This document shows, piece by piece, positions 35 through 64,000 of a stretch of 64,000 nt of DNA. The stretch is taken from the NCBI GenBank assembly GCA_964187785.1, contig OZ076409.1:46626001-46690000 (forward strand). The letters run 5' to 3'. Position 1 is the stretch's first letter. Each line of letters starts with the position of its first letter. The notes beneath the pieces were generated by a model. That model searched no databases, was not told where the DNA came from, and saw only the letters and a program-made list of their open reading frames with translations. Made by a program: the position numbers and the translations under genes. Origin of the DNA: Amphiscolops sp. MND2022 (Eukaryota).

Positions 35-1005
35 TATCACTGAAGTGACTCATAACTTCACTAAACTGAAGTGACTCATAAACTCATAAATACTACTTTT
101 TGACTTTCACATAATTGTGTTCTTACTGAGAATGGGAACCGTTGATAATGATAATATAAGGATGAAAGACTTTCTCATATGTTTGGCGCTCCTGGGTTAT
201 TCATCCTTCTCAGCTGAAGTTATCCCGGGAATTCGGAACGAACGCCTTTTTATTTTTGTATCTTCAGCTTTGAACAACAGCCTTACGAGCCTGGTGGTAG
301 CAGTTAAAAGCGCCCTTCTAGTGGGCTTTCGAGTGTATATTTGAGCTCTTCCTGGACGTTCTGGTGAGCTTCTTTTGGGCGTCCTGGGCTTTTTTGACGT
401 TCTTCTAGGCTCCTTTTAGGGCGTACTTCTGGGGTCTTTTTGGGCGTCCTTCTGGGTTCTTTTTGGACATTGTTTTGGGCTCTTTTTGGGCGTTCTTCTG
501 GATGTTGTTCCGAAACTGCTAATTCCACTTTACATTAGCTGCATTTAGGAACGTTAGGGGATGTTTGCCCGGTTTTTTGAGTTTTCTGAGCATCTTTGAT
601 TCAAAAACGCGCCTGTCAAAAAATAGGTACGTTCGGTGAAAAAAAGATACGCTTGGTGTCTCTGATTAGAGACTTCTTCAAAAACTCACGACACTAAGCG
701 TACGACGTTTACGCACTGTGCTCCTTAGCGCTTTGCGTCTTCCATTGTAAACGTCCAGTCCCGCCCTAGCTTTTGCAGCTTCCTCCTGATTAGGTAAGTA
801 CCAAAAGTAAATCTATTTCGGAATGGCCATCTAAAGATTCCGCATTTATCACCGCCATCGTCTTGCTTGTCGATCGTTCGGATTAGGTAAATAATACGCA
901 CCGTTTCCTTTTCACTTCATTGATCACTGTGTTCTTCGCCGTTTCTAACGTATCCGTTCGATCTCTGAACGTTCCGTAGATTATTTATCAACAACTACAG
1001 CAACG
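35..1005 (+). repeat. 5' LTR of the BEL/Pao element (right boundary approximate)
   Basis: 35-180 (tatcactgaa..gtgactcata..gataatgataatataag.atgaaagacttt) aligns with 7556-7697. A TGGTC.. PBS-like start follows at ~1007. Confidence 0.6.
345..505. repeat. Degenerate ~24-bp tandem repeat (ctttttgggcgttcttctggg-like) inside the 5' LTR
   Basis: About six imperfect copies are visible. They explain the repetitive antisense ORF 304..528. Confidence 0.75.
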
Positions 1006-4000
1006 ATGGTCAACCCGAAGATTGCAACACTCACCAACCAGTTCAAACTACATGAATTCCAGAACGCATCCAAATACCTGGCGTCTAAAATGGACTGCGA
1101 CCAGAATCCTGCTCGTCTGCGTCAAAATCTTGCCATTTGCAATCTTTTGCATGCAGACTTGAAGAACTGGCTGAAAAGATGTCGGCACATCTGCCTCTTA
1201 CAGAATTGGAGCTATTTCTCCAGATTTCAGACGACATCTTGCTTCAAATTCTACAATTTACCGACCAAATTGAAGACCTAACAGTAACGGATCTCACACA
1301 TGCCTGTCACAGCCAATCTTCGCCAGCATTTTCCACAGTCCAACTTAGATGCGACGAAATCACAACATCACCAGGAGCCACAGCACCCGCAATTTTGACA
1401 CAAACGGACAGCAGCAGATCCAACAGTCAACAACCTGTTTACAGTTGCCACTCTTCGGGAAACCACTCACATTCTGGACATGACCGGAGACGAGCTCTTT
1501 CGTCATCTAGCCACCGTCGAAGACAACACTCCCAATGATACCCGACCGCCAGCAACACAACAAGGAGTTCACAACCAACAGAAAACTCAACTACCGTCAC
1601 CGACCATGACAACATACTTCAAGAACAAGCCTCAAGCATTGGAAACAGCCTTCAACAAGAACACTGCACCAGCACAACCGGAAGCAGCTTAATGCCACTT
1701 CAGCAGTAAGCGAATGTGCAAACCATACCTCCACAGTTACCACCTCTTCTACATCAACAAACTTTCAACAACCATTCGAAACAGCGTCAGATCTCCATCA
1801 GCAGCCAGCATCTACAGCCTACACTCTACAACATGCTTCCACAATTGGTCTATTTATCTAGCTACCATCAACCAACCTTTGACACCGTTGTTACCCCCAA
1901 TCCTGCATACCTGCAAACCGCATGTGAGATCTGGTCATGCGAACCTTACCACTCAACGCCTGCACAGCCACCTCCCAGCCACTTGCAAGAACAACTACCG
2001 TTCACCCAACCCACTGGGTATTTAACTAACCGCATGCACAACCTCGACAGTTTTTTGGCGCCCAGTACAGATGTACTTCACTCAAACCAATCACTGCCAA
2101 CTTGAGCTACTACGATTCCGACAGCTGTACCTCATCGTGCGATGGACCCGTCACATCAACTATTAGCACACGCCGCTAACTATTCCACACCACCACTGAT
2201 CCCACAACCTACAACTGTTGCACCTCAGATGCCACCTCATAATCGAATATACATGAACGAGTTCCCACCACAACTGATACACCCAACCAGTTTCTGACGA
2301 ACAGCCAACGCTGTGCAGCAGTGTTTTGGCACACCAGCACGCCGCCAGTGCTTTGATTCACAACACGCCCCCAGGAAGTTACTTATATACCGACAGAAAA
2401 CAGCCCCGCAACACAGATAGAACCAACAAATACAGCAATTGCAAACAACCGCCCACTGATTCAACTGTTTTTCGCACAAACTCCTACCTCAACCGCAGAT
2501 GCCAACTATTCCCCTGCACGTATCTAATAACCAACAACTCAAACTCCCTAGTTCAACTGTGATCCATTGTCATTTCACGATTGGATCAACATCTTGAAAT
2601 CCCCTGTTCACAGTTATCACACCAACACACCGCGTCACCTACCTCCAAAATCAAAATCCAGTGACCGGCCGAGCCAAGGACCTAATTCGTAGATACTCAT
2701 GTGACCCTGCATTCTATGATGTAGGTCTCGCCGAGCTCCAATCTCACTTTGGCTTACCACAGCATGTCGTTAATGCTTATAACAAACGCTTGGAGTCTTG
2801 GTCACGCGTCACGTCACAGAATCCGCACACTCTTTTGTCTTTCACCACTTCCCTGAAGTGAATGGTACAGTTTTTTAACGATCTTCACTGCACCGCAGAC
2901 CTGATATTTTCTACAGTTTCTTCTTCAGCGAAAGCAAACTGCCACACAGCCTTCTCACAAATTGGACTGAGTACATCGTAAAGTGTGCCATTGAAGTACC
3001 GACCCACCCTACTTCATTTCCAACAATTGTCGGAGATTCAAGCCGAAGTTTTTGAAGAACTTCAGCATCTCCTCTCAAGCGATACCTCACACCAACCAGA
3101 TATCACTGAACGAGACTTACAACGTCCAAAGCCATCTACTTCAACCACGAAAGAACAACGTTGCTGCCCTTGTGCAACAAGTCACACTTCATTGCTGTCT
3201 GCCCGCATGACCTCGAAGCATTTACTTCCGACAAACTTGCGCTCGTCCGAAAACACCAACTTTGCTTCAACTGTTACAGTAGTAGTCACCAGAAAAGTGA
3301 CTACCCGTCTCGCAATCACTTTTGCCTGGATGCAGCGCATTGCACCATACTTCGCCTCATTCCGTAGATAAAACCGCACGCTGCTCCTTACCAATCGTTC
3401 GCAGCGCCGACACAAGTAAACCCTTCTCAAATCCTGGGCGCAATAGCGACACGAATCAACCCAGCATTCACACTCAAAATTTACCCCATCAAACGACCTT
3501 ATAGCCGCCGTTCAGAATAACGAACAGAATAGGTTAAAGAACAGAATAGCCGCCGTTGTCAACAGTTGAACCTCACGAAAAGTCCCCATTTCAACGCCAC
3601 CTCTATGAATCACGATAACTCCAAACTACCGATCGATCTTTTGTCAGTTTCGTAAGTCATTCCCGTTTCACTTATGAAAGGCAACCGGATCGTCGACACT
3701 GACGCCCTCATTGATCCCGGTAGCACTGGAACATACAACGTTGAGAACATTGCAAAAGCTATAGATGAGAAGACCGTTTTGAAATTCTATTTGAACGTTC
3801 AATTCTTGAGTGGCTCTAACTCACTAACTGTTTTTCTTACAAACTTCACAAATGCCCCATACGCTGACAACGTAAAGACATTTTCGAATCAGGAAGCATT
3901 CTGTACTGTCAAAATCATTTTTCCCCAGCTGACATTGACGAGCTTAACACAGTTTGCCAATCCTCACCCCACTTACGTCACATCAATTTCCCTAACATCA

Positions 4001-7000
4001 ATACCGGATACATCAGAGTTTTTCTCGGAACTGACTGTATTGCCTTCAGCAATGCCCTCGAACGGATCGAGGCCTTACAATCACCCTTCTGGAATCCGAA
4101 CCGAACTTGGATGAACCATTTCTGACGAGTTCTATGTTTCCAGAAGAAAGAAGAGCCGTCAAATAAATTCCCTAATTTTTTACGCCTCCGCTAATCTTAG
4201 TCCCGGAATACCACTCTCCACCCCTCTCGTCGTCGATTTTTTTTACAACGTTTCTGGAACATAGAAAAAACTGCCGCTGAACCGCCAGTTCATCATACAT
4301 TGAACGAAAAAGAGCAGCAAACTCTGCGAACCCTCATACACGATTCGCCTTGAGAAAACCTGAGGCCTTCCTCTAAAACAATTATTTCGCTGCCAAGAGC
4401 CAGCTTCGTGGCATGCAAAAGTGCTTGAACGAAAAATCAGGGACACTACAGAAATTCAATTCGACAATCGAACGCGATTTTCCAGAAAAACTACATCGCA
4501 CCAGTTATCACCACTAATCCACCACCCGAACACATTTGGTACCTTCTAACCCATCCCCCGAAAACCCCAACAATCCGGTAGAAGTTCGCTGCGTAGCCAA
4601 CACAGCATCGATGGTCAAAGGAACATCCCTAAATGACAATCGCCTCACCGGACCAGACCTGCTCACAGATGCAGACCTGCTCCTTGAGCTCATTCTTCGT
4701 TTCCGCGAACACGCAATTGACCTTAGGAGATATCGAAGGCATGTTTATGCAAATCGCCATCCGACCAGCTGATCAATCAGCTTTGCGCTTCCTTTGACTG
4801 GAAGACGACTTGGTCCGCCAATTAATATCAATACAACCGATTGATGTTTGGTCGAATTGTTCCCCATGTTGTGCCATTTTCGCCCTCCGGGAATGTTCCT
4901 TTGACAATTGCGACAGGACATACTAGTGTACTGAAAGATTTTTACATGGATGAATTCTTCATTAGGTCATTTCGAGCAGTTACGGACGCCCGACAACTTA
5001 CATTCGACCTACGCACGAACCATCTTGGCTAGAGGTGGCTTCCGCCTCACTGAGGTCGCAGCCAACAATTCTGCAGCCCTAGATCACCTTCCTCAAATTG
5101 AAAAATGAGCAGCGGTTGAGACGAAACGAGTCCTTGATCGAAAGTGGTCTTGAAAGTTGACACCTACAAGGCACCGCCACCAAAACCCGCTACGACACCG
5201 TCAACGTTATGCCAGCTGTTCAGTCACGTTTCCTCTATTTTCGACCCGATTGGCCTACTCGCACTTTCCGTCATCAAACTCAAGATACAAATTGAGTCAC
5301 TCGGTGAACGTGGCCAGAATTGGGAACCAAATTTTCAGAAGACATTCAGCCGATTGTTGACAAAATCGGCGCACGGTACCGTCAAGTTCCTCACTTCTCC
5401 GTGCCTTGGCGCATTTTTCGATCAACGACACCAGTTAATCTGCGCAATTTATGGATTCCGTTTTTTGCTGTCATCATTTTTGCTTGTCAACTGGATGCCT
5501 CCGGCGAGACCGCTAATCTCACTTTCGTCCTAGGAAAGAGCCGTGTCGCTCCCATCAAACAACAAAGTGTTCCAAAGCCGGAACTTCAAGCCGCCGTTCT
5601 GGGAGTCCGTTTACTCTAAACAGTACGTAAAGCTTTCGCCACACAGTTTCGACCAGTTACGCCTTGGTCCGACAGTTGTGTTGTTCTCGACTGGATCCAA
5701 TCGCCCAACAAAGTTTGTTTTGCCGCCAACATGAACTGTTTGAACATTTTGTTTTGCGACGGAATCAGACAATCGACATCTGCAGTTGACTGGATATACG
5801 TACCCACCGATTCAAACCCAGCCGACTATGGCACAAGAGGTTTAAAACCAGACGCTATCGAACAACTTTGGACTCTCTCCATTTTTGACCCAATCACCTC
5901 ATCAATGGCCGCACCGCCGCCATCTCCCGCGCGCTAATAGTATTTGCGCCACCGCTAAAACTGAACCACAATCCGCTGTTTTGAATTTCAATCGTTTTTC
6001 TTTTTGGTTTCGTCTACTTCGCTCATCCGCTCAAGTCTGCCGCTTCGTCCGCCTTCTCCGAAACCGCTCGTCTGACCGCAGTCTCGCCACTGACGACTAT
6101 CAACATGACCAGCACCTGCTTTTCCGACAGTCGCAATTTGAGTCTTTTTCCACCACGGTATCTCAATTGCATAGCAAAAAACCCTTCGTTGGAAGTCAAG
6201 CGTTTACCACACAGTCCCGTTTTGGACGAACACGCCGTTCTGCGTTCCGCCGGTTGCCTCCAGTACGCTTCTCTACCCTCCTTGACACGAATTCCGATCG
6301 TTTTAGACACCCGCAAGTGCATCTTACAACATTGTCACGCCCTCTGTCATCACGCTGGAGCAGATTACGTAAAAGCGTTTCTGAAACAGCGTTTTCTGAT
6401 TTTCGGAGTCCGTTCTGCGGTGCGGACTCATTCACAGATGCTTCACTTGTCGCCGTTTCCGCGCGCAAAACGTAGAACCCGAAATGGTAACACGAGTTTG
6501 CCATTTAGAAGCGTGTACCTCCCTCACTAGCGACAGTTTTTGTAACGCCTGTCGACGATTCCTCGCTAGACGGGGACAACCACGCCGTTCGCGTTCCGAC
6601 AATGGAACCAACTTCAACTTTATTGGTGTCCGTCGTACCCTCCAGGACAGCTTGAACGAAGGTATTCGTTATTCCAAAGAAAAAATCGTGCAAGCTGCCG
6701 ATATACAATGGAATTTCAACCCACCAACAGTTCTCTAGTTCGGTGGAGCATGGGAGAGGATAATCCAGACAGCCAAGCGAGCCCTTTTGATCAACCAGGG
6801 ATCGCAGAAGCTCACTTTGAATTTCTTCACTAATTTATCAGAAACAGAGCTGATGCTAAATTCCCGCCCACTCACTCATGCTGCCGATCAGTCGGAGAAT
6901 GAAGAGCCACTGACGCCCAACCACTTCCTACTGAATCGATCGTACGTTATGTTACCTCCCTGAGTTTTTAACAGCCCTGACCAGTCACTTTTGTTTAAAT

Positions 7001-14189: not shown

Positions 14190-14492
14190 AACAAGACGCC
14201 CGCTAAACACCGGGATATTTTTTGCCTTGTCAAAAAAATCGCGCAGGCGAGATTCGAACCAAGTAAATTAAAATAGAACCAAGATAAACAAGTAACTAAA
14301 ATAGGGAACTACCATCCGGGCCATATTAAATTCAAAGATAGTCAAGTAACTAAAATAGTCAAGTAACTATAAAATAGTCAACTAAGTGAAGTGGATGGAG
14401 AAACTGGCAGAAAAGAGGAGGATATTCGGCAGAATTTGTAAGAAAAACAGATTATGATTATCCACCCCCCATATATGTGGGCGGAAAATAAC
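14190..14492 (-). mobile_element. HINE-like element, family 2 (short copy; homologue at 41388-41697)
   Basis: On the + strand it begins aacaagacgcccgctaaacaccgggatatttt and ends ccaccccc-atatatgt-gggcggaaaata. It has ggcggaaaata-type subTIRs and internal 17-bp repeats (caagtaactaaaatagt). Confidence 0.65.
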
Positions 14493-14684
14493 AATTTTAT
14501 TCTAAGCAACTTGATCAAAAAAGCATTTGAACAATGTCTTATACAATGTAAATGGTTGTAAGCCCGCCCGCTTTTTCGAAAGAAATTGCCGGAAGGCAAG
14601 TTTTGAAAACGCCGTGGGAGATTCAAATTTGCATGAATACTGTGAGTGGAAGTCGACCGAAAGAAAGAGGAAGCTCGTACTGAC

Positions 14685-14914
14685 CGGCATGCCTTCTTGG
14701 GGGTGGGGTGCAGAGAGTTAGTGTTGACAACATTGGGTGGCAAGTCATTGCTTAACTTCACCGTCTGCTTGGAGACTTTTGAAATCTGAGAACTTTTGGG
14801 CACGTTGACAGTGCCAGTTTTCTGGGTGGGAGAGAACGCTTTGGGCAATTTGGTTGTAGTGGCCACACTAAACCTCTGGCGCTGGTTAACGTCAACCTTC
14901 TTGAATTGTACAAG
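14685..14914 (-). CDS. GABBR2: GABA-B receptor 2-like exon immediately after TM7
   Basis: Reads ttttcag|LVQFKKVDVNQRQRFSVATT...PKKAC(R)|gtcagt, 230 nt, phase 0 in and phase 2 out. The start resembles the GABBR2 post-TM7 segment (L.....NP....Q.RRF). Confidence 0.8.
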
Positions 14915-15058
14915 CTGAAAAACGTTTTGATGAGTACTGAAAGTAGAAATACATTTGATGTGTGTATTATTACAACTAACACAATATTCAACTCAAACAC
15001 TTTTTGCGATCTTGTCTAAAACCTCACACCGTTCACTCACTCAAAAACAATTTTGATT

Positions 15059-15294
15059 CAGTCGCGATTTTTTGAATGTGTATACATTGCATAAATTCTA
15101 GAAAAACTTGATCGAAAATTTCATATCCAGGCGTCTGTCCACAACTTCGTATGAACGTTTATTAATAAATTAATAAAACATGAACCAGATTAATTTATTC
15201 ATCAATTTTCTGTATACTTCCATTTAAGATTCTGAAAATTTATCGTTTATAAATCACGTATTTAAACCTGTACACATTCAAAAAATTACGAGTG
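15059..15294. mobile_element. Small MITE
   Basis: TIRs are cagtcgcgattttttgaatgtgta and (rc) cactcgtaattttttgaatgtgta. TA flanks the right end. Confidence 0.6.
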
Positions 15295-17764
15295 TATTTC
15301 GGTTATTTGTTGGTACTCTGACAGATCCAACACCTAAATCCAGAGTTCTAAATTCTCCTTAAAAACGATTATTAGTGTAATTGGGCTATTTCAATTTGAA
15401 ATAATAAGTATCTGATGCATCATTTTAAAACGAGACTCATGAAAACAGATACAAAGGAGTTGGGAAAGTTGCTGAAATCGTTTCATCTACTTTATATCAT
15501 CGTTCCAAATAAAGTTCGATAAAGTGTGAAATTTTCCAATTGATGTTCATTTCTATGCAACTCATAAATCACGTATATCTATTGGTCCAATGATAATCGT
15601 TTGACAGAGGATGAATTGGAAGAAAAAGAACATGTCCCAGAAATTGACAGTACCATGGTAAGCAGCAAGAAAGAAAATTCGGAAGACGAAATGAATTTAA
15701 AGCGGATTTAACAATTATAAGCATAGGAAAGACTTGATAGCAGGAAAAGCAACAGGTTTAGGTGTGATGAAAAATGAGAATGAAAGCCGCCAACTAAAAT
15801 TCCAATAAAAAATTTTTAGGGACTAGAGTAGTTTTTGGTGCCTAAAAAGCAAATATTGTAATCCAAAGATCGAGTTAGCTCAGAACAATGCGTAGATTCT
15901 GTGTTTTAGATATCCAATGTCGGAATAATTCCGGGGTTTCAAAGAATCGATCGAGGTTAGATTGATTTCTAGCATAATGATTTTTTTTGCGTATTTGAAA
16001 TTCTTAGTGAGTTTGAAGGATTTTTTCTGGGTTTTTTTATATTCACTGATCACTAAAAATGTCAAGGGCATCTGAGAACTGTTGAAGTTGTAATATTGAC
16101 AGGATCCGCTTTCCGTCTTTTAGAGTCAGTCAGGATTTTTGGATGAGAAATCGTGTTTGTAGAGAATCTTAATCAGTGTAAGATCGTTTTTGAAAAGATG
16201 TTAAGTTTCGATTTGCACAACAGTACTCGAAACTTATGAGAGGAATCAATATTTTGGTTTTAAAGTTTTGAAGGGAAATAGAAATTTTTTCAAACTTGTC
16301 TCAAAAAGCATAGTTCACATTTTGTTGAAGGGCGCAAATTTTGAAACGGTTGTGGAAGATGTGTTCGTATGTATGAATGTATGCGTTTTATGCGTTTCAA
16401 CCATGAATGTATTCGCCAACGATGTTGATTCCCCTTTAAAAGTTAATTTCAAATTTTGCTTCCAAATTTAGAAAGATTTCATTTTTCTTATGTAAAAAAT
16501 GAAAAAACTTAGTTTCGGCAGAAATCTTTCCTCCTAAAATTTTCTGCACGGAAATAATCTTAGCTCAAGATGGAGTTACACTCGACAGTGGCTCAGTTGC
16601 ATATACTCATAAACACCCAGGAATGCAATCTAGTCCATGCCGAACTTTTTTTGTAGTTCCTTTTTAAACATAATTTTCAAAGTGGCTTTAGACCTGTTTT
16701 CTACTTCTGCAAAAAAATGTTTTCGGACTGCTCGGAGATTTTCAGCTACACTTGAGCAATCAATCGAAAGTTTGGAAATTAATTCAACACAATAACTTCA
16801 TTATCAGGAGTCAATTATTTCTCAATTTAACACAGAGTCAATTAATGATATAGCGATTGAAGAAGTGAACTGAAGCATTTTGTACATCTGATCTGCTCTG
16901 TGAGAAAATCAAAATGCATGTTGTCAGTTTCTACACAGGCTAAAACAATCTCCAGTTGTTCATATAGATCTTGTGGATAAAGTTTCGTTGTAAAATTGAT
17001 ATTTACCGAATGTCACCTTAGACCAATACAAGCCTAAATACTAACATTCAGCACAGAAGGTTTCTTCACAGTCACAAACAAGCATTCAACACACTACTTA
17101 GGAAACATATTTTAGTACTACGTTTAGTTACTACTTCTAGTAACATATTTATATTTGCTTTTACTTCAGCTTCTGCAGTTAATGTTGCAGCAACAATAGG
17201 TTATTTCGTTGCCAGCTCACTCACTCGGACATCACCTTAGGTTTCACATAACTACACTAGTACTTTTCATTTGCCAATGTTAACAACTCAATCGTTATCA
17301 CCAAAAGCAATCGAATCAAAAACACAGTCTGACTTTTATTATAGTTTCAATTTGAAATGTTGTTACCATACACATTCCGATAGAATGGACATAAGTCACG
17401 CAACGTAATCTGTTCAATTAGTGAAATAGTCATTCATCCTAAATCAGTCAAGTCGGTCTACTTCTGGAAGTTGTAGCTGTGCCAACGAGTGGAGTGTAAT
17501 GGAAAATAGTGTAAATAGGTTTTTCGTGCGGAATTTCAATTGCGTTCAGTTTGCTTCAGTGACGCTACGGATTTTCACTTCTTCCCGTTCCCATGTACGT
17601 ACAAAGCATTTTATAATTTCCATTACATCCTTTACAACGAATAACGCCGTTCTCTTCCTTCGTTTTGTCGACTCACTACTCTATGCACACGCCACAACAT
17701 TGTTCTATTCTTCCAACTCAACGACCTGAAAATTGAAAGTTGAATTTTCTTGAACATAATTATA

Positions 17765-42185: not shown

Positions 42186-43937
42186 ACAATTCATTTTCCT
42201 TTTTTATACCAGATTTCCATCACTGGCAAGGACTATTCGAGGAGTTGTGAGAATGAAAGTGGCGTTTTTTATGACTTGTCCAAGACTTCACAAGTCCTTG
42301 CCAGTCATTGGGAAGCCTTGGATGTCTTTGAATTCACAACTTTATCGAAACGAGTGTTTTTCTGACAGTTGAAATATCCCCACTTACAAAGGACTGCACA
42401 AGAACTGGTAAGGACCTGGGATTTTTTCAAAACTAGAGTTAATCTTGGCAGTCCTTGGAGTACTGGAGATATCCTGCCGAGGAATTGAGTTCACTAGAGT
42501 GTCAAAAAAAGGCTCAAGATACGGTCTAAGGGCGGAAATTCAAAATGAATCTATGAGTATATAAATTGAACCAAGAAGAGCTACTAATACCTGTTGTTTT
42601 TTCCAGAAATTTAACCTCTTTGATTGGCTGATATGAAAGAGTTGACTACAAAAAGATGATGTTCTTCACCCTAAATAGCATAGCTTAAAAGGAGCATACA
42701 TTTTTCAAAACTTCTGGTTCGTTTTGCGAGAAACCCATCTTCTTAAGCACAGTTTATATTTAACAATTTATTGGTACCTTGCTTAATACGAATGGCACAA
42801 AGATTAGCAAAAATGAAGTTTTCTCCAACGGTGAGAATATTGGGTTTGTTTTGCGGAAAAGAGTGAAATTTCCAAAATTCCCTTTTTGGCAATTTCCAAT
42901 TTTCTCAAAAGTCTTTGACCCATAAAAAAAGGCAACCCCAAATCCTTTTACGACAAATCCTTGTGCAACAAAACCAAATGATATGTTGTTGTTACTTCAA
43001 GCCCCGCTCAGTAGGCCGCACGATGTGGCGGTACCGGAAAAATAAACAAATTCTGAAGAAAGGGAAGCATGGCAATAGGGGCTCATTAAACCAAGATGAA
43101 AACCCAGTATTGTTCCTTTCTAACGCGTTATGGCTCATTTCTCTGGTATGCATAGTTGGAAAGGATTTAACGTTTGAAAAAATTCCGAAATTTTTGGAAA
43201 TTCATTTGCAAAAATGCCTTTGCTAATTAGGGTTGAAATAAATCAGATCACAAAATATTCCCATGCACTGCAAGTATCTTGTCTGGAATTGAATAGCAGA
43301 TTTTTAGAGGTCTTCAAAGTTCCACAACTAAGTTCCTGAGATGTTTTGAAAACTAGAGTTAATCTTGGCAGTCCTTGGAGTCCTGGAGATATCCTGCTGA
43401 GGAATTGAGTTCACTGGAGTGTCAAAATAAGGGTCGAGATACTGTTTAAGGTAATGATTTCAGCTAAAGGTTTATGGACAATTTTTTTCGGTTGTGTAAG
43501 AACATCGTATACCATAAAACGGAACGTACTTCAGTATCCAAAGTGCCAATTCTTATCTTTTACTAGCATTTCTCATTCGCAAGTCTGAATCTCAAGCCAG
43601 TGCCTGTATCTGTTTCCCTGCAATTTCGTTTCCTAAACTTTTTCTTTGTCTGGAACTTGACAGAAAAAAGGCAATAATAATATGTGACTGCTCAGTCCAG
43701 GATCGCATGTTTAGAAGTGAAAAACGAAAGCGGTTTAATTCATCATTCTCGCTCTTTTAGGATCAATGATAATCATGGCCGGAGCATCGCAATCCTGACA
43801 AATGACGTCACTAGATATGTAATATGAACAAATGAATACGACGAACTAGTCCAATATGACATCAACTAGATAAATATGATAAATCAGGCGAATGCAATGA
43901 ATTAAGAGAATACGACAAACTGAATGAGAGTAGTAAC

Positions 43938-44159
43938 CTTGGGGACGAAGACGAGGCAGAGGGTGATGGTGGTGGCGAATATGATGAGGGTGGAGAGCAA
44001 GATGAAGCTGTGATCTGCGTCATCAATTACTGACGTCACTCCGATGCTGACCAGACATACAAGCATTACTACGTACACGTTGATGCCTATGTACTTTGAA
44101 TCATTCAATGCCGGGATCGTAACTGAACGCGTCTCCCAAGCCAAGAAACACCCAAAGAG
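43938..44159 (-). CDS. GABBR2: GABA-B receptor 2-like exon (end of TM5, ICL3, TM6, TM7)
   Basis: Reads gattttcag|LFGCFLAWETRSVTIPALNDSKYIG...FATTITLCLVFVPK|gttact, 222 nt, phase 0/0. IPALNDSKYIG and TLCLVFVPK are GABA-B2-type rather than GABA-B1-type. Confidence 0.96.
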
Positions 44160-44228
44160 CTGAAAATCAATAAAGCATGATTTGAACTGGATCGCTTTCA
44201 TGCCACTATACTCCTTTTCTTCCCCGTA

Positions 44229-44740
44229 TTTAGTCGGCGTTTTCGGAGAAAATGGACGACTCTTACAGTGGCTAGTTTTTTCCGTCAGTTCAACGCGATC
44301 GGTCCACTTTTTTGTTCATTAGTTCAACATGATCAACTTGAACTTCATTCTCGAAACGCTAGAACCTCGTCCAAAACAAAAACATCGACGTCCAGAACAT
44401 CGAAAACATAGGATCCCCCCCTTGGGTGTTTTTCACTTGGATTGTTTTCGGCACTATGCAACATTTTTTGAAGTCTTTTGGATTGCACCAAAGGGTCTCC
44501 CCTTCATTTGTTTCGAAATTTTGCAACACAATGGATGTCAAAAGATCCCAAAGGATGCCCCTTTTACATTTTTCGGCACTGTGACGCTGTTCAGAAATCT
44601 CATTTTTAATTTTTTTGGAAATTTTTTAAAATCCCACTTTAATTTTCTTCATATTTTGCAACCAACTGGAGTTTCACAAGGCCCAAAGGGTCCCCCCATT
44701 TACAATTTTGAGCATTAGATATAGATAGTGCCGACTTTCA
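44229..44740 (+). mobile_element. HINE family 1 copy
   Basis: The 5' end tttagtcggcgttttcggagaaaatggacgact forms a hairpin and the 3' subTIR remnant is gtgccgactt. Central caaagggtcccc repeats are present. Confidence 0.7.
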
Positions 44741-44796
44741 AAGAGTTACTATTTACTAGTACTACTAATTCATTAACACTTCATTAGCACTGTCTA

Positions 44797-45470
44797 CAGT
44801 AGTGATTTTTCTAAAAGCAACAAAAGGCAAATCTCAAAATCGAATAACTCTAAAACGGCAGCAATTTTTTGAAACTGATAAAAGTGAAAGTTTCTTAGAT
44901 TTTTATCTAGTTTACAAATATGTTTATTTGAAGGTTATGCGATTATGCGGTTATGAAAATTGTAGAAATTAGGATAGGCCATTTTCAACCAAAACTTGGT
45001 CAAAATTGAGGTTTTTCTCACTTTTAGTCAATTTTTGCTTGAAATTTTAGAGAAATTTTATGTGCAATCGACTCCCCTGAATTAACTGAAGCCCATGATA
45101 TGTTTTGATTTAGAAATCATCCTAAAATGGTTTTAAAAATACGCTGTAAAATTAGACCTTTTCGAAAATACATGTATTAAGATACGAGTTCGAAGTTTAA
45201 CAACTTAAAACAAGCTCATACTAATGCAATTTAGAATATTCTTGAGAAGTTATATTGTCAGATTCGAAATGTTTGGGAGAATTTTTCTGTCAAAAATATT
45301 TTGAAACCAAAAAATTGTAGGTTGGTCAAAAATTCAAAAAACTAAAACCTGATCTTTTGGAAATCGCTGTCGACCAATGAAATGAGCGTGTGAGACCTTG
45401 ATTAGCCAATGACATTTAATTATTTGCTTTCTTTCAGCGTGCTATGTTGCTTCTTCTAGAATCACTACTG
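44797..45470. mobile_element. Degenerate Tc1/mariner-type MITE
   Basis: TA|cagtagtgatt...agcaaca matches the reverse complement of the right end, cagtagtgatt...agcaaca. The right flank is tt rather than ta. Confidence 0.6.
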
Positions 45471-45577
45471 TTTTTAATCGTGCTACTAATGTAATACGAT
45501 TGACTGATTGATACTGTGTATGCGAATCAAGCAGTGTAATCATGAATCGGCCTGTGTAGCTCACCAGAACAATGCGT

Positions 45578-45850
45578 AATTATGAGATGCCTAATGAAGG
45601 TAGTCAAATTGCGTACAAACGATGTTTGGTGTAAACTAGTCATTTTATGTAATTTTGGATTGTGTAAACTGGTCAATTTACGAAGCTGTGTCAACTAGTG
45701 TAACGTCCTATCAACGCGTGTAATGTGTGACAAGTGTAAAACTTCCAAAAAAATGTTCGGGCTCTGATTGCACAAAAATCGAATTAGCAGGCTCCTGCTA
45801 GTTCGTTACCGGGAAGTGTCTCGTAATGTTGGCCGTTTCCGGCTTGTTTG
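45578..45850 (+). mobile_element. HINE-like element, family 3 (duplicated at ~47697-47955)
   Basis: SubTIR-like attatgagat / gtctcgtaat pair. It ends gccg-tttc-cggc-ttgttt, the same hairpin and terminus as the family-1 copy at 55488. Confidence 0.5.
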
Positions 45851-50620: not shown

Positions 50621-52101
50621 TGTAAGGACTTACGTCCTCTGTGTCTCTTAGATCACATCAGACATAGAATCCTTCTTTGAATTAGTTTTCAACCCAGTTG
50701 TTCTCTCTCTATTCTCCTGACTATTTGGGGACGAACTAGCCTCAGTGTCCCTGTTTCCTGATGAAGACATCGAATTCACTATGTTACGTGTTTCTGGAAT
50801 TATTCTATCTGATATAGATGAATTTTTAGCTCTGTTAATCTGAGAATGCATCATCGACATCATGGAATCCATTTCTTGAAAAAGCCTCAAATCAACTTCA
50901 TTTGTTAAAGTGTCCACCGATTCCAAAATTCCCTCAACCCTGGGGTTGTTGTTTCCATAGTTTTGGTTCCTGGATTCATTCCCTAGGGGAAAATCTTTCC
51001 TTGGAGGTAAATTAGATGATTCCTCAATTGCATTAGCTAATTCTCTCTCGATTGGGTTGATATTATCACTTTCTACCATTATGTTTAGGTTATCAAAGTC
51101 AGACATCATGTCCATTGCTCTAGATCTTCTAGCTTTTGCTTTTTGTCTCCTCGTAGAAGGCATCAGAAATGGTTACGAGGGAAGAATCAAGTTGAATCTT
51201 GATCTTGTAAAACAACATTGGTATCGGTTGTATAACTGAACAATTAGTAGTTTCAACTCATTGTGTCGGGACTTAAGTTCCTGGGTATTTATATATTCAT
51301 ATTTGCATGACTAGCAATTTTACTGAAGCGATATTCTGAAAATAGCCTGAAGGGCTTTCTAAAAATAGCAGCGACTATCTTTAGCAACTATGACGTCATG
51401 TACATAGATTAACTTCGAAGCAATTTCACGTCGACACAGAAGATACAATTACACGGCGGCATATATAATATACATGTGTCCCTCAAGGACGAACAACAAT
51501 ATATACAAATAACACTTCATGGAATTTTACATGAAATTATCTAATCCATGGAATATATTATGTGACTATCAGTCTTCTCTACTTTTCAACACAACTCCTT
51601 TATAAACCAAGACGTCTGGCATATAAAGGCTACCATCTAACTATATTGTGAGATTTAATAAACAGCGCCTTTAATCTAAATTGGGACTCACTGTTCAATT
51701 GTCTCGAGTAGCACGCTTGCTAAGATGAATGGCCTTACGCGGCCTTTAATTCAGTAAAGTACAGCACTAATAAATGAACGCGGCTGATTGGCTAAAATGT
51801 GAATTGGACGCGTTCTCCGCGGCCACAGGCAAGGAATCATTTGAACACGTTTCCTTTGCCTGTACGCCTTGGTGTCCAATTATCTTTTCAGTTATCAATA
51901 ATAAAATAACACAACGCTAAGTTTACATGCACATTCGAAACAAAAAATTGAAATCAATAAACTTCCAGATTCAAAGTTTGCAGTTTATTTTTGGACGGTA
52001 TGTCTGTTTTCCTTAATCAAGCGGGATCGTCCCAGGGAGAGTGTTATAGTTATTGTATGAGATGGAATACCAATTTCCATCGGATGCGGCAGCGTGCGAC
52101 A
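50621..52101 (-). mobile_element. Solo LTR (~1.48 kb) carrying an internal ORF
   Basis: TG...CA termini (+ strand TGTAAGG ... GCGACA) with a perfect 5-bp TSD actta (50616-50620 and 52102-52106). A TATA-like tatataaata lies on the minus strand near 51295. Confidence 0.85.
50648..51163 (-). pseudogene. LTR-internal ORF (MPSTRRQKAK...), probably a Gag N-terminus of the parent retrotransposon
   Basis: 171-aa ORF lying wholly inside the solo LTR and ending ~30 nt before the LTR edge. It is homologous to the disrupted ORF starting at 57062. Confidence 0.65.
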
Positions 52102-52969
52102 ACTTAGTATCCTTTTGTATAGTATATTTTTTGTTTCTTCAAAGACAGATATAAAAAATCGAAAAGAAACTTTATTTTCAACTTCTTGTGAGTTTTTTCC
52201 GCAAAATTGTTCTCTATGAGCTAGGCTCGAAACTTAACTATATGTCGTTTGGGGTGGGAAATATTCCTGTGCTTAGCGAGAGTATTGTTAGAAATTAAAC
52301 CTATCATAATAAAATCGAGAATATATGCCCATTATCTCCAAAAAAGACTTAAAAGATAATCAGCACAGGGTTTTCTATTTTTGGTGCTTGTCTCACGATA
52401 TCGCCCTTGCCTTGGATATTGGGTAAATAGGAAAACAAAACGATGTTTGAATGACCACTGCAAGACCAAAAAAAACATGCGAGATGGTGTGAAGGTATGT
52501 CCACATGGCTCTCTTTTATGAACAAATTCCAACTTGAAAGCCCCCAGATTTGATTAACCAGAGGTCATTTGAAATGGGACATGCGTTCGTTCAAAGGCGG
52601 TTTCCTTCGACGCATGACCACATTTCAAAGGTTGAAGTTCTGTTCATTATCCCGACTTATTAGAATTGAAGGATTTCATCATCCCAAGGGAAACGCTGAT
52701 TCTTAGCCCTTATATGTTTCTATGGAATATGGATGGAAATGAACAGCTTTTATCTTTCGGTAATTGTCTCATAATGTAATCTATAAAAATTTGATTGTTC
52801 CTACACTTTGCTATATAGAATGGTCATTACACCAATTCACGAAGTTCATCAGAAAATTAACAATCCGTGAACGGTATAAATCGGCGCCCCGTAAAGGCTC
52901 AAAACAGCGAATGTACTTCAAAGCGTCAAGGGTTCTCTTTTGCTTCTGCTTCTTTTCCCACAACAAATA

Positions 52970-55628: not shown

Positions 55629-56632
55629 TGGCATTTTTCAACATCCATTCTGTAGCAAAACATCAAAAAATTGATGGCGGACCATTTGTGAAAAAAGTCT
55701 CACAATGCCAAAAAAACTGAAAGGGAGGACCATTTGGGATTTTTCATCCATTCTGTCGCAAAACATCAAAATAATTAAATGGGGATCCTTTGGAGAAAAA
55801 AGTCTTGAAATGTCAAAAAAACTAAAAGAGGGACCTTTTAGTCTAATCGGGTATTGTATGTTACGCTGAATAAAAGGAACAACTTTTATATTTCAGTTCA
55901 TTGTGCCAAATGGTTCAATTTGTGTCGTAACCAAATTCATCATCACTTTGCTGAGAATCCACTGAATTCTCTCTACAGTGATTTGTTTGGTTATTATTAA
56001 TCGATAATAATCTTGGAAACTCATTCTGAGCATCCTGGGCTGATTTATTACCATTTTCTGGATGCAGTCTATTTGACCGAAGGTCCTTCTGAGAATTTTC
56101 TTGGGCCGCATTGTCTTGATGCAGTCCATCTGGCATTTTTCAACATCCATTCTGTAGCAAAACATCAAAAAATTGATGGCGGACCATTTGTGAAAAAAGT
56201 CTCACAATGCCAAAAAAACTGAAAGGGAGGACCATTTGGGATTTTTCATCCATTCTGTCGCAAAACATCAAAATAATTAAATGGGGATCCTTTGGAGAAA
56301 AAAGTCTTGAAATGTCAAAAAAACTAAAAGAGGGACCTTTTAGTCTAATCGGGTATTGTATGTTACGCTGAATAAAAGGAAAAACTTTTATATTTCAGTT
56401 CATTGTGCCAAATGGTTCAATTTGTGTCGTAACCAAATTCATCATCACTTTGCTGAGAATCCACTGAATTCTCTCTACAGTGATTTGTTTGGTTATTATT
56501 AATCGATAATAATCTTGGAAACTCATTCTGAGCATCCTGGGCTGATTTATTACCATTTTCTGGATGCAGTCTATTTGACCGAAGGTCCTTCTGAGAATTT
56601 TCTTGGGCCGCATTGTCTTGATGCAGTCCATC
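55629..56632 (+). repeat. Near-identical 502-bp tandem duplication
   Basis: 55629-56130 matches 56131-56632. I saw only one substitution (aaggaacaac vs aaggaaaaac). The ORF track shows identical peptides 502 nt apart. Confidence 0.95.
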
Positions 56633-57960
56633 TGACCGAAGGGCCAAACTTGTAATTTTTGCTGAATTCTGTCTCCTAGTAGCATTTTTGATACTGGGCA
56701 ACACTCTAGTGTCAATTGCAGTGTTTATAACGTCCAATATCTGGGAATTTAAGCTAGGTTGCAATTCTCCAAAATTCCTTGACATCTGTGAAAAAAATAG
56801 CCTTACTAGTTTCAACAGTCAAACAACTATTTTCACTCAGATTAGTATTCAAGTAAGACCTTTAGTTATTTTCATTTTGATTTGAACTACCTTCTGGTCT
56901 ATTTGACTATGAGCCAATTTCATTTTCACTAGTTCTATCCTGAATTTCACTGTTATCCATTCGATAACTTCCCAACATAACATCAAGATTTACAATATCT
57001 GACATAACGTCAGACTGACGGGAGCGTTTCTCTTTAGCTTTCTGCTTTCTGGTTGAAGGCATATTCAACAGAGGAAATTCAGTTCAACAAAAAATTGGTG
57101 AAAGTTTCAAATGAATAAAGTTGTGTATTGAGTGTATTTCGTTTATCAAAGAATGATCCCTTTCAGATCAAATTCCGCGTATTTATAGCTGTAACAGCAT
57201 GACAAGTATAAATTCGCACGTCATGTTACTAAATTTGGATTGATGTCAGGCTAAATTTATCTCGAACCCAGTCACTACGTCATCTGATTCTAAAAATAGA
57301 CTGGGGGTGGGGACATTGCATCACTTTAGGGGGGGGAGGTTATAAATAATATCAAACTAACAACATATCAATTTACATGAAACTAATCCTACTTCAAAAG
57401 CAACAATTCATGAGGCGGCAACATCAATATTTATCTATACATCAAATCTGACCTAGCGTCAGCATGACTGCAGTGGATATTCCACATTGCGTTCTGATTT
57501 GTTGAAATAAAGGTTTGACTACACGTCGGTTTGACTGCAGTAGTTTACCAGCTAAGTGCGTTTTCACGCTTTCATGCATGTATCGCTGTATTTTAAGGCA
57601 CTTCCAAATTTGTTCGATAGCACAACTATGAAACAATTAAATCAAATAATTTCAGTGCGCCATATGAATAACAAGAGGATTGCAGTATGTTGTATAAAAT
57701 GGTATCAAATCAGCACTTGTCACAGTTCAAATGTGGAGTTGCTGTCCAGTTGACCAATGGTCAACTTGTAGAAAAAACATGATATATAAAATAGTGATTG
57801 TACAGGTTTCAAAGTTGTTAGTTTGCATCAGTTTATTATTGTAAACCTTTTTAGGTAGGCAGAAGAGTTTATATGGGCAAGACCCCCGGTCCTGGGTTAG
57901 TTCGGTCACTTTCAGGCGTTATTTGGTAGAGAAAGCCATCACAGGCGGCAACCTGCCACA
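56425..57960 (-). mobile_element. Solo LTR (~1.54 kb) carrying a disrupted internal ORF
   Basis: On the + strand the termini are TGTCGTAACC ... CTGCCACA, with a perfect 5-bp TSD atttg (56420-56424 and 57961-57965). On the minus strand a TATA (ctataaata, ~57186) precedes an ATG at 57062 (MPSTRKQKAKEKRSRQSDVMSDIVNLDVMLGSY), and the coding-like sequence runs to the LTR edge (..DDEFGYD). Confidence 0.88.
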
Positions 57961-58258
57961 ATTTGGCACCTCAAAGTTTTATAGATTTTTGTAGTGCTAT
58001 TTTTGTCAGTTCGTGTGGATTGAAAAAAGAGTCACTAGTACAGTCGCGTTTCACGTCATGAAGTGCCTAATAAAAATAGTTTGTAGCCGGAATGTCCCAG
58101 TTATTTCAGTTTGACTCAAAGCAAGCTAGCGAAACTCTAATTCGTCTCTTTATTTTTCTACCAACGAGAGGAAGAAAACAAGATGTTGCGGGGTGGCGCT
58201 TTCACTGCTTTCAAAGGAGTGAAATCTAACGGTCTTTGGCGCTGTTCATTATTTGATC

Positions 58259-61365: not shown

Positions 61366-61565
61366 NNNNNNNNNNNNNNNNNNNNNNNNNNNNNNNNNNN
61401 NNNNNNNNNNNNNNNNNNNNNNNNNNNNNNNNNNNNNNNNNNNNNNNNNNNNNNNNNNNNNNNNNNNNNNNNNNNNNNNNNNNNNNNNNNNNNNNNNNNN
61501 NNNNNNNNNNNNNNNNNNNNNNNNNNNNNNNNNNNNNNNNNNNNNNNNNNNNNNNNNNNNNNNNN
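61366..61565. other. Assembly gap (200 N)
   Basis: Run of N. It must contain the acceptor site and the first codons of the TM3 exon. Confidence 0.99.
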
Positions 61566-62507
61566 TATTCGAAACAACGTAAAGTCCTTTTAAGGTAATC
61601 AATTAGATACTCCCCAAGAGGTACAGTAAACCGAGGTCCGAATGTAGTTGATTTTGAAACAAAACATCTCATTAATTTTTAATTTTTAAACTGAGAAAAT
61701 TCAAAATAAGAGATAAGAAACGGCACCAAAATTTCAAAACAGTGCCAGCATCAGTGAAATAGGCCCTTTCAACAAAATCTTTCATCAACTCAGAGTATTA
61801 CCTGTCCTTATAATTTTGTTATTATTGATTTTTGTCAATATGGATTTTGGTTATATTCTTCACTCGAAAAATCGAAGAAAAAAGGAATGAGTTTTGATAT
61901 TTTTGGAAGGCGTCTTTTTTCTTGCAAATGTTCAATTTTTTAACTGAGTTTAGCATGTTACAATTAATAGAAGATTTCAAATAGTTGAGATACTGAGATG
62001 CACTCCAAAAACAATTTAACTCAAGCTTCCTAGAAAACAACTATTACAGGCCAAATTGCTTTTGGGTTAAAAAGATTTTTGGGTTTTCTTGTTTTAAAAA
62101 CAGTTCTCGGTAAACTACATCCGATATGGTTTCCGCTTCATATATTTTGGAAACGTAAAAACAGCGAGCGGCTTCAGTTGTTTTGGCACGATGGCATCGA
62201 GTTTTTGGATTTATCACAAGTACAAATATTGTTATGTCTTTAATTAGTTAATCATAAATTTCTTAATCTTTCTTTTTTTCAAAATTATTTTATGTTTTAT
62301 CTTGTAGTATAAAGCTAGGGTACCAAAAAGCTAGACAAAAAATACCGCTGTAATTTTGATCAAATTTGAGTGACTTTTCAAATGAATGATTCCTGAAATG
62401 GGACATGAGATTTTTTGGTAGAAATAAATATTGATTGAAAAAATATTGCACTTTGAAAATTTCGTTAGTCAAATCTAGTTTTTTGGTACTCTAGAGTATG
62501 TACTAAC

Positions 62508-62803
62508 AGAACATATAGCATGATAGTGTTCGATGTGTAGTACGTGCTGAGCAACGTTACTGTCGAATCCGAGGAGGAACACGGAGGTATAGGAGAGAAG
62601 ACACCCCACGATGATGACGTTGTTGAGGTTGGGTGAGCTCATCTTGATGAAGCGGATGTTGCGGTTCTTGACGTTGAACACGAGGAACACCAACGACAGC
62701 ACCATGCCCCCCGAAGCAATCGCACACAGCCCTGCGTAAAAAGCTGCCGTCACGTGCGTCACTTGGTTCACCACTCGCGGGCTGTCGTTAGGGGGCTTGC
62801 CCG
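62508..62803 (-). CDS. GABBR2: GABA-B receptor 2-like exon (stalk, TM1, ICL1, TM2, ECL1); upstream Venus-flytrap exons lie beyond the window
   Basis: Reads tgtttcag|..GKPPNDSPR...FLVFNVKNRNIRFIKMSSPNLNNVIIVGCLLSYTSVFLLGFD...AICS|gttagt, 296 nt, phase 1 in and phase 0 out. Confidence 0.96.
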
Positions 62804-64000
62804 CTGAAACATGATCACATTCATGAAAGTTGAAACCTCCTGGGTTAAAATCTAAACAAATCAAGTTTTGATTGCACGATCTTCGGCCTGGATTTTGACC
62901 TGGAACATTTTTACCATAACGCTTATCGGGCAATTGGGAAGTGCATTTCGAAAAACGGAAAAACTTGCCTTGTGAATAGAAACTTCTTTAGGGCTATATT
63001 TCTTCTGAACTTTTGACGCTAATTTTGAGGTCAATAGCTGCTCGTTAACGCGAACTATTTTATCCTAAAATGAAATGCTTGCATTTCTTTCAATCGAAAA
63101 TCTCAACTGAAAGTTTCAAAATACAAGTTGAATGATCTTCTGCCAAAATCAATTTTTAAAACATTTTTTCAATTAGTTGAAAGTAAAACATTTTAATTTC
63201 GATTAGTTGCATTACTTTTCATTGAGTGTCGCAATGTCAAATTATTCGGCTGCAATTAATTATTTATTCAATCCTCAGCAGCACTAAGATACTAAGATGC
63301 AGTACAACACGTCCTGAGTTGAGTGAGTTGTTTTGTAAAACGTAAAACGGAAGTTGCACAAATTTTTAAAAATTGTGTTTTTTGACCTCTCATTCATCAA
63401 AAGTGGTGTTTTCTGGATTACAGGTACTGGATATGATTCCGATCAATTACGTTATAAAATTCTTTTCATTCAAAAAGGGAGATGAATATAACACAAGAAT
63501 AGGTCTCCCAGGATCAAGGCGTGGTACACTTAGAAACTGTATCATGTTTTTGGACATTTTAAGATCAATATAATGTATTTTAATTCGAACGCAACTTTCT
63601 AAAACTGACTCAAATTTGCATGTAAAAGTTTTACCCAGAAATAAATTAGGAACATTTTTCGGAGTCTCTTCTTACCAGTATTTTTCGTTTTCGAAATGCA
63701 TCAACTAGAAGCAACTATTGGAAAGTATATCTTGTTTAGAACTGAAACTTCCGTAAGCTTTATCAGCTTGAGTGCAAGAAAAACGAAAAGAAAGTACATA
63801 CATACACGTGTTAATAATCTGTCTTCAAATCTCCCTATACAACGGCCTTACACAGGACATCACAAGCATGTCACAAACATTCAATTCGACGGAACAGCAA
63901 CTTCAACGACAGAACAGGAAACGAAAATGAGAAGCTTTTAACTTGAGTAATGGAACGGAAAGCTATTCACGCAGTGACTAGAAAATTGCATAACGAAGCA

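Follow-up and report, generated by a model that had tools for sequence, protein, structure and literature searches.

The two solo LTRs described below are, with a probability that we place at roughly 0.88, decayed remnants of a Ty3/Gypsy family in which gag starts inside the LTR; the frame that they carry is the first third of Gag, likely working only in the 5' LTR of a full-length element. The features concerned were located as follows in the window, i.e., the whole 64,000-nucleotide stretch of Amphiscolops sp. MND2022 DNA that was analysed:

50621..52101, minus strand: solo LTR 1 (1481 bp), of an old subfamily; closest copy found, 82% identity
50616..50620 (left) and 52102-52106 (right): TSD ACTTA of LTR 1
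52013..52101, minus strand: what is left of the C-terminal tail of ORF3, at the LTR 1 start (28 codons and a stop, without a start codon of its own)
51295-51287, minus strand: TATA-like box of LTR 1, 132 nt upstream of the gag ATG at 51163
50648..51163, minus strand: N-terminal Gag fragment of LTR 1 (171 codons; a 1-nt frameshift leads to a stop at 50650-50648, leaving 27 nt to the LTR edge)
56425..57960, minus strand: solo LTR 2 (1536 bp); closest copies 93-95% identical, several of them within paired-LTR elements
56420..56424 (left) and 57961-57965 (right): TSD ATTTG of LTR 2
57869..57960, minus strand: ORF3 tail remnant at the start of LTR 2
57181..57187, minus strand: TATAAAT of LTR 2, 125 nt upstream of the gag ATG at 57062
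56425..57062, minus strand: broken N-terminal Gag fragment of LTR 2 (stops at 56909-56907, codon 52, and 56864-56862, codon 67; an 11-nt gap beyond)
55629..56634: tandem duplication of 504 bp, 99.8% identical, comprising the last 210 bp of LTR 2 and flank
43902..44315, minus strand: host class C GPCR (7tm_3) exon, downstream of both LTRs
62475..62987, minus strand: host class C GPCR (7tm_3) exon, upstream of both LTRs

Both copies have TG..CA ends and 5-bp TSDs and lie on the minus strand, in agreement with a preliminary description of two ~1.5-kb solo LTRs, each with a TATA box ~125-135 nt before an ATG (132 and 125 nt as measured) and a coding span of ~540-640 nt up to the LTR edge (543 nt from ATG to edge in LTR 1 and 638 nt in LTR 2). 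The proteins begun by the two ATGs are homologous in N-terminus and helix, as that description had proposed, whereas LTR 1 and LTR 2 gave no DNA alignment across most of their length. The orientation shared with the host receptor gene was also borne out by the 7tm_3 exons, which are on the minus strand on both sides, but two sense insertions out of two have a chance of 1 in 4 and are uninformative on orientation bias. On the other hand, the long ORF claimed for both LTRs was found in LTR 1, which is open for 171 codons and then frameshifted, and not in LTR 2, which is stopped at codons 52 and 67. Two upstream ATGs (at -97 and -54) lie between the TATA-like box and the gag ATG of LTR 1. The 504-bp duplication across the end of LTR 2 (55629-56634) is either a recent duplication or an assembly artefact, and a gap of 200 N (61366-61565) falls within a host receptor exon. 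Elsewhere, the window holds decayed gag-pol-like frames on the plus strand (949-6834), which resemble a BEL/Pao element, and several LINE-like RT and endonuclease remnants (18.8-30.5 kb).

The parents of both solo LTRs are Ty3/Gypsy elements of ~15-19 kb, members of a very abundant family. Both DNA searches of the genome (best 40 of 3,237 and best 40 of 1,461 candidates scored) showed LTR pairs on the same strand, 12-16 kb apart, and protein searches returned 14,260 and 16,447 first-look candidates for the Gag head (best 150 of each scored) and 43,936-45,632 for Pol. Full-length elements with these LTRs, the first thing to be checked, do exist: paired LTRs, 88-100% identical, were found around gag-pol. 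For the LTR 1 family, the four stretches read comprised three decayed gag-pol elements and one tandem duplication; for the LTR 2 family, LTRs were paired in 5/5 stretches, one of which has gag-pol deleted. The apparent LTR pair at G000:C4:16.56 Mb was rejected as an element, being the tandem duplication. Young family members carry LTRs that are 99-100% identical, and the elements have direct LTRs, TG..CA ends and 5-bp TSDs.

The domain order of both Pol proteins (2/2) is PR-(dUTPase-like, weak)-RT-RH-IN, which is the gypsy order, and the closest solved structure in the PDB is Ty3 Gag-Pol (E 1.6e-42), followed by foamy virus (4e-32). RT identity to the reference element was 78-92% in the seven other elements compared. 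The 120 RT matches listed bore no names, and the protein-cluster look-up gave names for 0/8 proteins. A GGGGAG-type PPT precedes the 3' LTR in most elements and is weaker in three distant lineages. Several further traits of the family were observed: i) in all intact elements, the overlap of gag and pol falls on an A-AAA-AAC run ahead of the gag stop (L112:3455-3470), consistent with a -1 frameshift; ii) in the copy at G000:C2:6.08 Mb, gag and pol form a single frame of 2292 codons; iii) some tandem elements share one LTR, with the PPT before and the PBS after that same LTR (L104/L105, L090/L091 and L123/L124); iv) a multi-exon antisense gene lies between pol and ORF3 in all lineages viewed (minus strand; L113:623-2964 and L112:8836-9900), with a zinc-finger-like motif and a weak zf-C2H2 match (E 0.002).

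To follow the frame across the LTR edge, we tabulated 12 elements from 11 subfamilies, picked for open gag; near-duplicates, old broken elements and the elements at C3:47.2 Mb (broken gag) and C7:19.57 Mb (split 5' LTR) were left out. In all 12 intact elements the gag ATG is located within the 5' LTR, which holds 114-217 codons, or 24-36% of Gag, and one further base up to its edge. The LTR/PBS junction A|TGGTGACAGG encodes MVTG in one phase (+1) in 12/12, with A|TGG TGA CAG G read as Met-Val-Thr-Gly in each. The PBS, a 12-13 nt match to the 3' end of tRNA-Leu(CAG) in 5/5 ordinary copies, is inside the gag ORF in every tabulated element, a feature of the Ty1 layout. Thus the suggestion that the ORF is a Gag N-terminus reading through the LTR end and PBS was upheld, one frame continuing into capsid and zinc knuckles in 12/12. 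The capsid-like match spans Gag residues 268-443 and starts 85-95 residues past the LTR end; Pfam matches in Gag were to DUF1759 (E 4e-6 and 8e-5) and, weakly, to Retrotrans_gag and zf-CCHC (E 0.02-0.05), and two CCHC motifs are visible after the LTR-encoded part.

The same junction provides another candidate start, the Met formed by the last A of the LTR and the TG of the PBS, at which Gag would mainly be initiated, leaving the LTR-encoded part as an optional longer isoform. We regard this as rather unlikely. The in-frame junction ATG is present in 12/12 elements, but it arises automatically wherever a CA end abuts a TGG primer site; moreover, two blocks of the upstream part are constrained like core gag, and in most subfamilies the first ATG that follows the TATA box in young copies is the one in the LTR.

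Several observations concern the primer tRNA. In L037 (G000:C2:43.01 Mb), L154 and L155, complementarity to tRNA-Leu(CAG) extends for at least 42 bases after the LTR or PBS, likely because reverse transcription read on into the primer tRNA. The L037 copy lacks gag-pol from the tRNA-complementary stretch to the end of integrase. Most of the 739 genomic matches to the tRNA-Leu 3' pattern are in a tandem array with ~296-bp spacing (G000:C8:35.59-35.66 Mb and beyond), in one tile of which (L157) ARAGORN called no tRNA.

A TATAWA motif was found at -120 to -170 from the gag ATG in 8/12 elements, as compared with 11/187 background 50-nt windows, and further upstream (-224 to -286) in the remaining four. 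An A(A/T)TAAA after -170 was absent in 7/12 elements and scattered in the other five. An AATAAA near LTR position 113-124 of the window copies was dropped as a candidate genomic poly(A) site, not being conserved. According to the accessible part of one source (PMC3601003), AATAAA is usually conserved in the LTRs of animal Metaviridae and is relied on in LTR models of animal gypsy elements, and RNA data are required to place the U3/R/U5 borders.

The basic start and helical segment that had been noticed in the head were both recovered, as a basic N-terminus and a predicted helix mid-peptide. The structure prediction for the head consists of one confident helix (residues 75-140; pLDDT over 90 for 45 residues) set in a chain of low confidence (mean 59.7). 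Predicted self-association of the helix (two copies of residues 60-150) scored 0.02, the mark being 0.32. A Foldseek search of the PDB with the head model gave 0 matches, the ESM Atlas no usable match to the head, and Pfam nothing below E 0.08 for the window peptide. The LTR-encoded N-termini of the three distant lineages (RT 78-82% identical) went undetected by the head profile (best E 3.8). These lineages share the head layout of basic start, amphipathic stretch and polar linker, but since the profile misses them a common origin of all heads is not established. The head, with its basic N-terminus, long amphipathic helix and disordered linkers, might tentatively be viewed as a matrix-like targeting or assembly module of Gag.

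Selection was assessed between subfamilies with a GY codon model (8 subfamilies; ranges give log and final fits). The LTR part of gag evolved at an omega of 0.10-0.11, as compared with 0.06-0.07 for core gag, and its conserved blocks at 0.05-0.06 (helix) and 0.04-0.05 (first 32 codons), while the ORF3 tail was at 0.18-0.27. Within groups, omega from pairwise counts was 0.11-0.32 wherever synonymous sites had not reached saturation. Thus purifying selection on the LTR ORF across subfamilies, the absence of which had been named as grounds for refutation, is present (omega ~0.10).

After insertion, the LTR-encoded gag fragment drifts neutrally. Between the 5' and 3' LTRs of 33 elements there were 129 synonymous, 405 non-synonymous and 20 stop differences (omega 1.01), the stop changes making up 3.6% of the differences against 4.5% expected. 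Omega was 0.96 on the 5' side and 0.96 on the 3' side, and 1.03 after two misaligned pairs were dropped. Many of the pairs came from protein searches favouring intact frames, a bias that runs against neutrality.

Furthermore, the LTRs are not the self-contained coding cassettes that they had been taken for: an intact frame has no stop inside the LTR and continues into host flank, by 1-45 codons, in 25/25 of the 3' and solo copies examined. The suggestion that solo or 3' LTRs act as a dominant-negative copy-number control likewise found no support, the fragment being neutral after insertion and devoid of the capsid domain, of a stop of its own and of a conserved poly(A) signal, and both window copies being broken. 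A version freed from selection on single copies, in which young 3' and solo LTRs are expressed and their Gag-head peptides collectively dampen the family by copy number, is also improbable in our judgement. It would draw on the very high copy number (14,260-16,447 first-look head candidates), on the TATA, ATG and whole frame kept in young copies, and on the conserved helix, which could bind Gag partners; moreover, Ty1 is restricted by a truncated Gag (PMC7055915, in the portion available). Set against these are the missing capsid domain, a C-terminus that is random flank, the poly(A) signal that is not conserved (missing after -170 in 7/12 elements) and the neutral decay after insertion. We hold as similarly doubtful the broader proposal of the gypsy LTR as a two-ended coding module, in which both priming sites would be translated, each insertion would bring with it a promoter and an ATG followed by a helical, nuclear-targeting head of 110-220 codons, and the peptides of thousands of young copies would titrate full-length Gag, yielding a self-scaling copy-number control and a supply of chimeric new ORFs.

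Results from old copies and from solo LTRs ran counter to this neutral reading. Private changes pooled over 16 old copies gave an omega of 0.67 (p 0.017), and those in five solo LTRs 0.43 (18 synonymous, 24 non-synonymous and 2 stops; p 0.01; a small sample); a looser set of seven solo LTRs gave 0.49. As controls, omega was 0.66 for paired LTRs when the twin was disregarded and 0.54 for the remaining unpaired copies; solo and paired LTRs did not differ significantly (Fisher p 0.22). A solo LTR has no twin to absorb the changes from its time in the active lineage; therefore lineage history explains the low solo omega, while weak selection may act on some solo LTRs.

The open frame of LTR 1 bears on a further alternative, namely that host selection has kept it open as a new small gene. 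Its 171 codons are the longest among close old relatives, 19/22 of which break by codon 105 (range 5-105), the other three having been picked by protein search; in addition, the TATA is retained and the branch omega is below 1 (0.35-0.43). Yet broken sisters have the same branch omega (0.37-0.49), an unbroken run is not rare with only about 11 private amino-acid changes, LTR 1 was singled out because it is open, and it carries a frameshift near the end and two upstream ATGs. We therefore consider a new gene here very improbable. As decayed remnants of the Ty3/Gypsy family, both window LTRs are ordinary, and likely by-products rather than working genes.

The other end of the LTR is coding as well. 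The conserved ORF3 crosses the PPT and continues within the 3' LTR for 27-31 codons in 10/12 elements and for 14 codons in one lineage, and is frameshifted in one copy; its tail is kept in both window LTRs. Since gag spans the PBS and ORF3 spans the PPT, both priming sites are protein-coding. ORF3 (L113:4077-5078 and homologues, e.g., G000:C2:74.70 Mb) is in sense orientation and about 240-370 codons long, with a conserved His and CxxC in most subfamilies; it found no match in Pfam and no usable match in the ESM Atlas.

In retroelement replication, the U5 of both LTRs is copied from the 5' end of the RNA and the U3 from its 3' end. If transcription begins shortly downstream of the TATA box, the gag head would lie in R/U5 and be inherited from the RNA 5' end, and the ORF3 tail would lie in U3 and be inherited from the 3' end. 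Reverse transcription would then copy both pieces to both LTRs, each being maintained where it is translated and passively carried to the other LTR and to solo copies. LTR-LTR recombination would finally leave a headless-and-tailless passenger.

Among known systems, HIV nef and MMTV sag are retroviral ORFs that overlap U3 and, like the present ORF3, extend across the PPT and on into the 3' LTR; however, these vertebrate retroviruses start gag after the PBS, whereas both LTR ends are coding in the present family. The gag of Ty1 (Ty1/copia) begins in the LTR, upstream of the PBS, as here, but about 14 of its codons lie in the LTR as compared with 114-217, and the distance from start site to PBS here would be 0.5-0.9 kb. 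Ty1 has the order PR-IN-RT and a tRNA-iMet primer, whereas the present family, with gypsy pol order and tRNA-Leu(CAG), falls outside the copia definition. The Ty1 PBS is inside the GAG ORF (RNA nt 94-104), while that of Ty3 is in an untranslated region (PMC4974528, as far as the available text goes). Ty1 p22 is a truncated Gag from internally initiated transcripts that acts on capsid function (PMC7055915, available portion); the fragment here resembles it as a truncated Gag and possible trans-dominant inhibitor, but ends before the capsid domain and is under no post-insertion constraint.

The rotifer elements Juno, Vesta and TelKA and the planarian Burro have a dUTPase located between PR and RT as well as additional ORFs that follow pol (PMC5408684 and PMC6431247, in the sections accessible). 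With these Metaviridae the present family has in common the PR-RT-RH-IN order, a CCHC Gag, a dUTPase-like domain in the PR-RT interval and further ORFs past pol; it differs in that its ORF3 overlaps the PPT and LTR start, and in its gag start inside the LTR, a feature that the same sections do not mention. Nothing on LTR-coded Gag appears in the accessible parts of PMC7175516 and PMC9911081, and our literature search, with Repbase, GyDB, Dfam, subscription journals and supplements outside it, found no description of a long LTR-encoded Gag in a gypsy element. The architecture is an unusual one, a gypsy-type version of the Ty1 layout drawn out to great length, in which both LTR ends code for protein.

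LTRs usually pass for non-coding DNA. In this family, candidate pieces of which number in the tens of thousands, between a quarter and a third of Gag is encoded in the LTR, together with the end of ORF3. Gene callers turn such LTRs into spurious small proteins, as seen in the 1,582 protein clusters (50% identity) that fit the head profile, which is a warning for annotation, and solo LTR counts and dating must allow for the coding constraint between subfamilies. Moreover, from the layout one would expect a strong-stop DNA of great length and translation of the primer site, and the family thus offers a natural test of translation and priming sharing one RNA.
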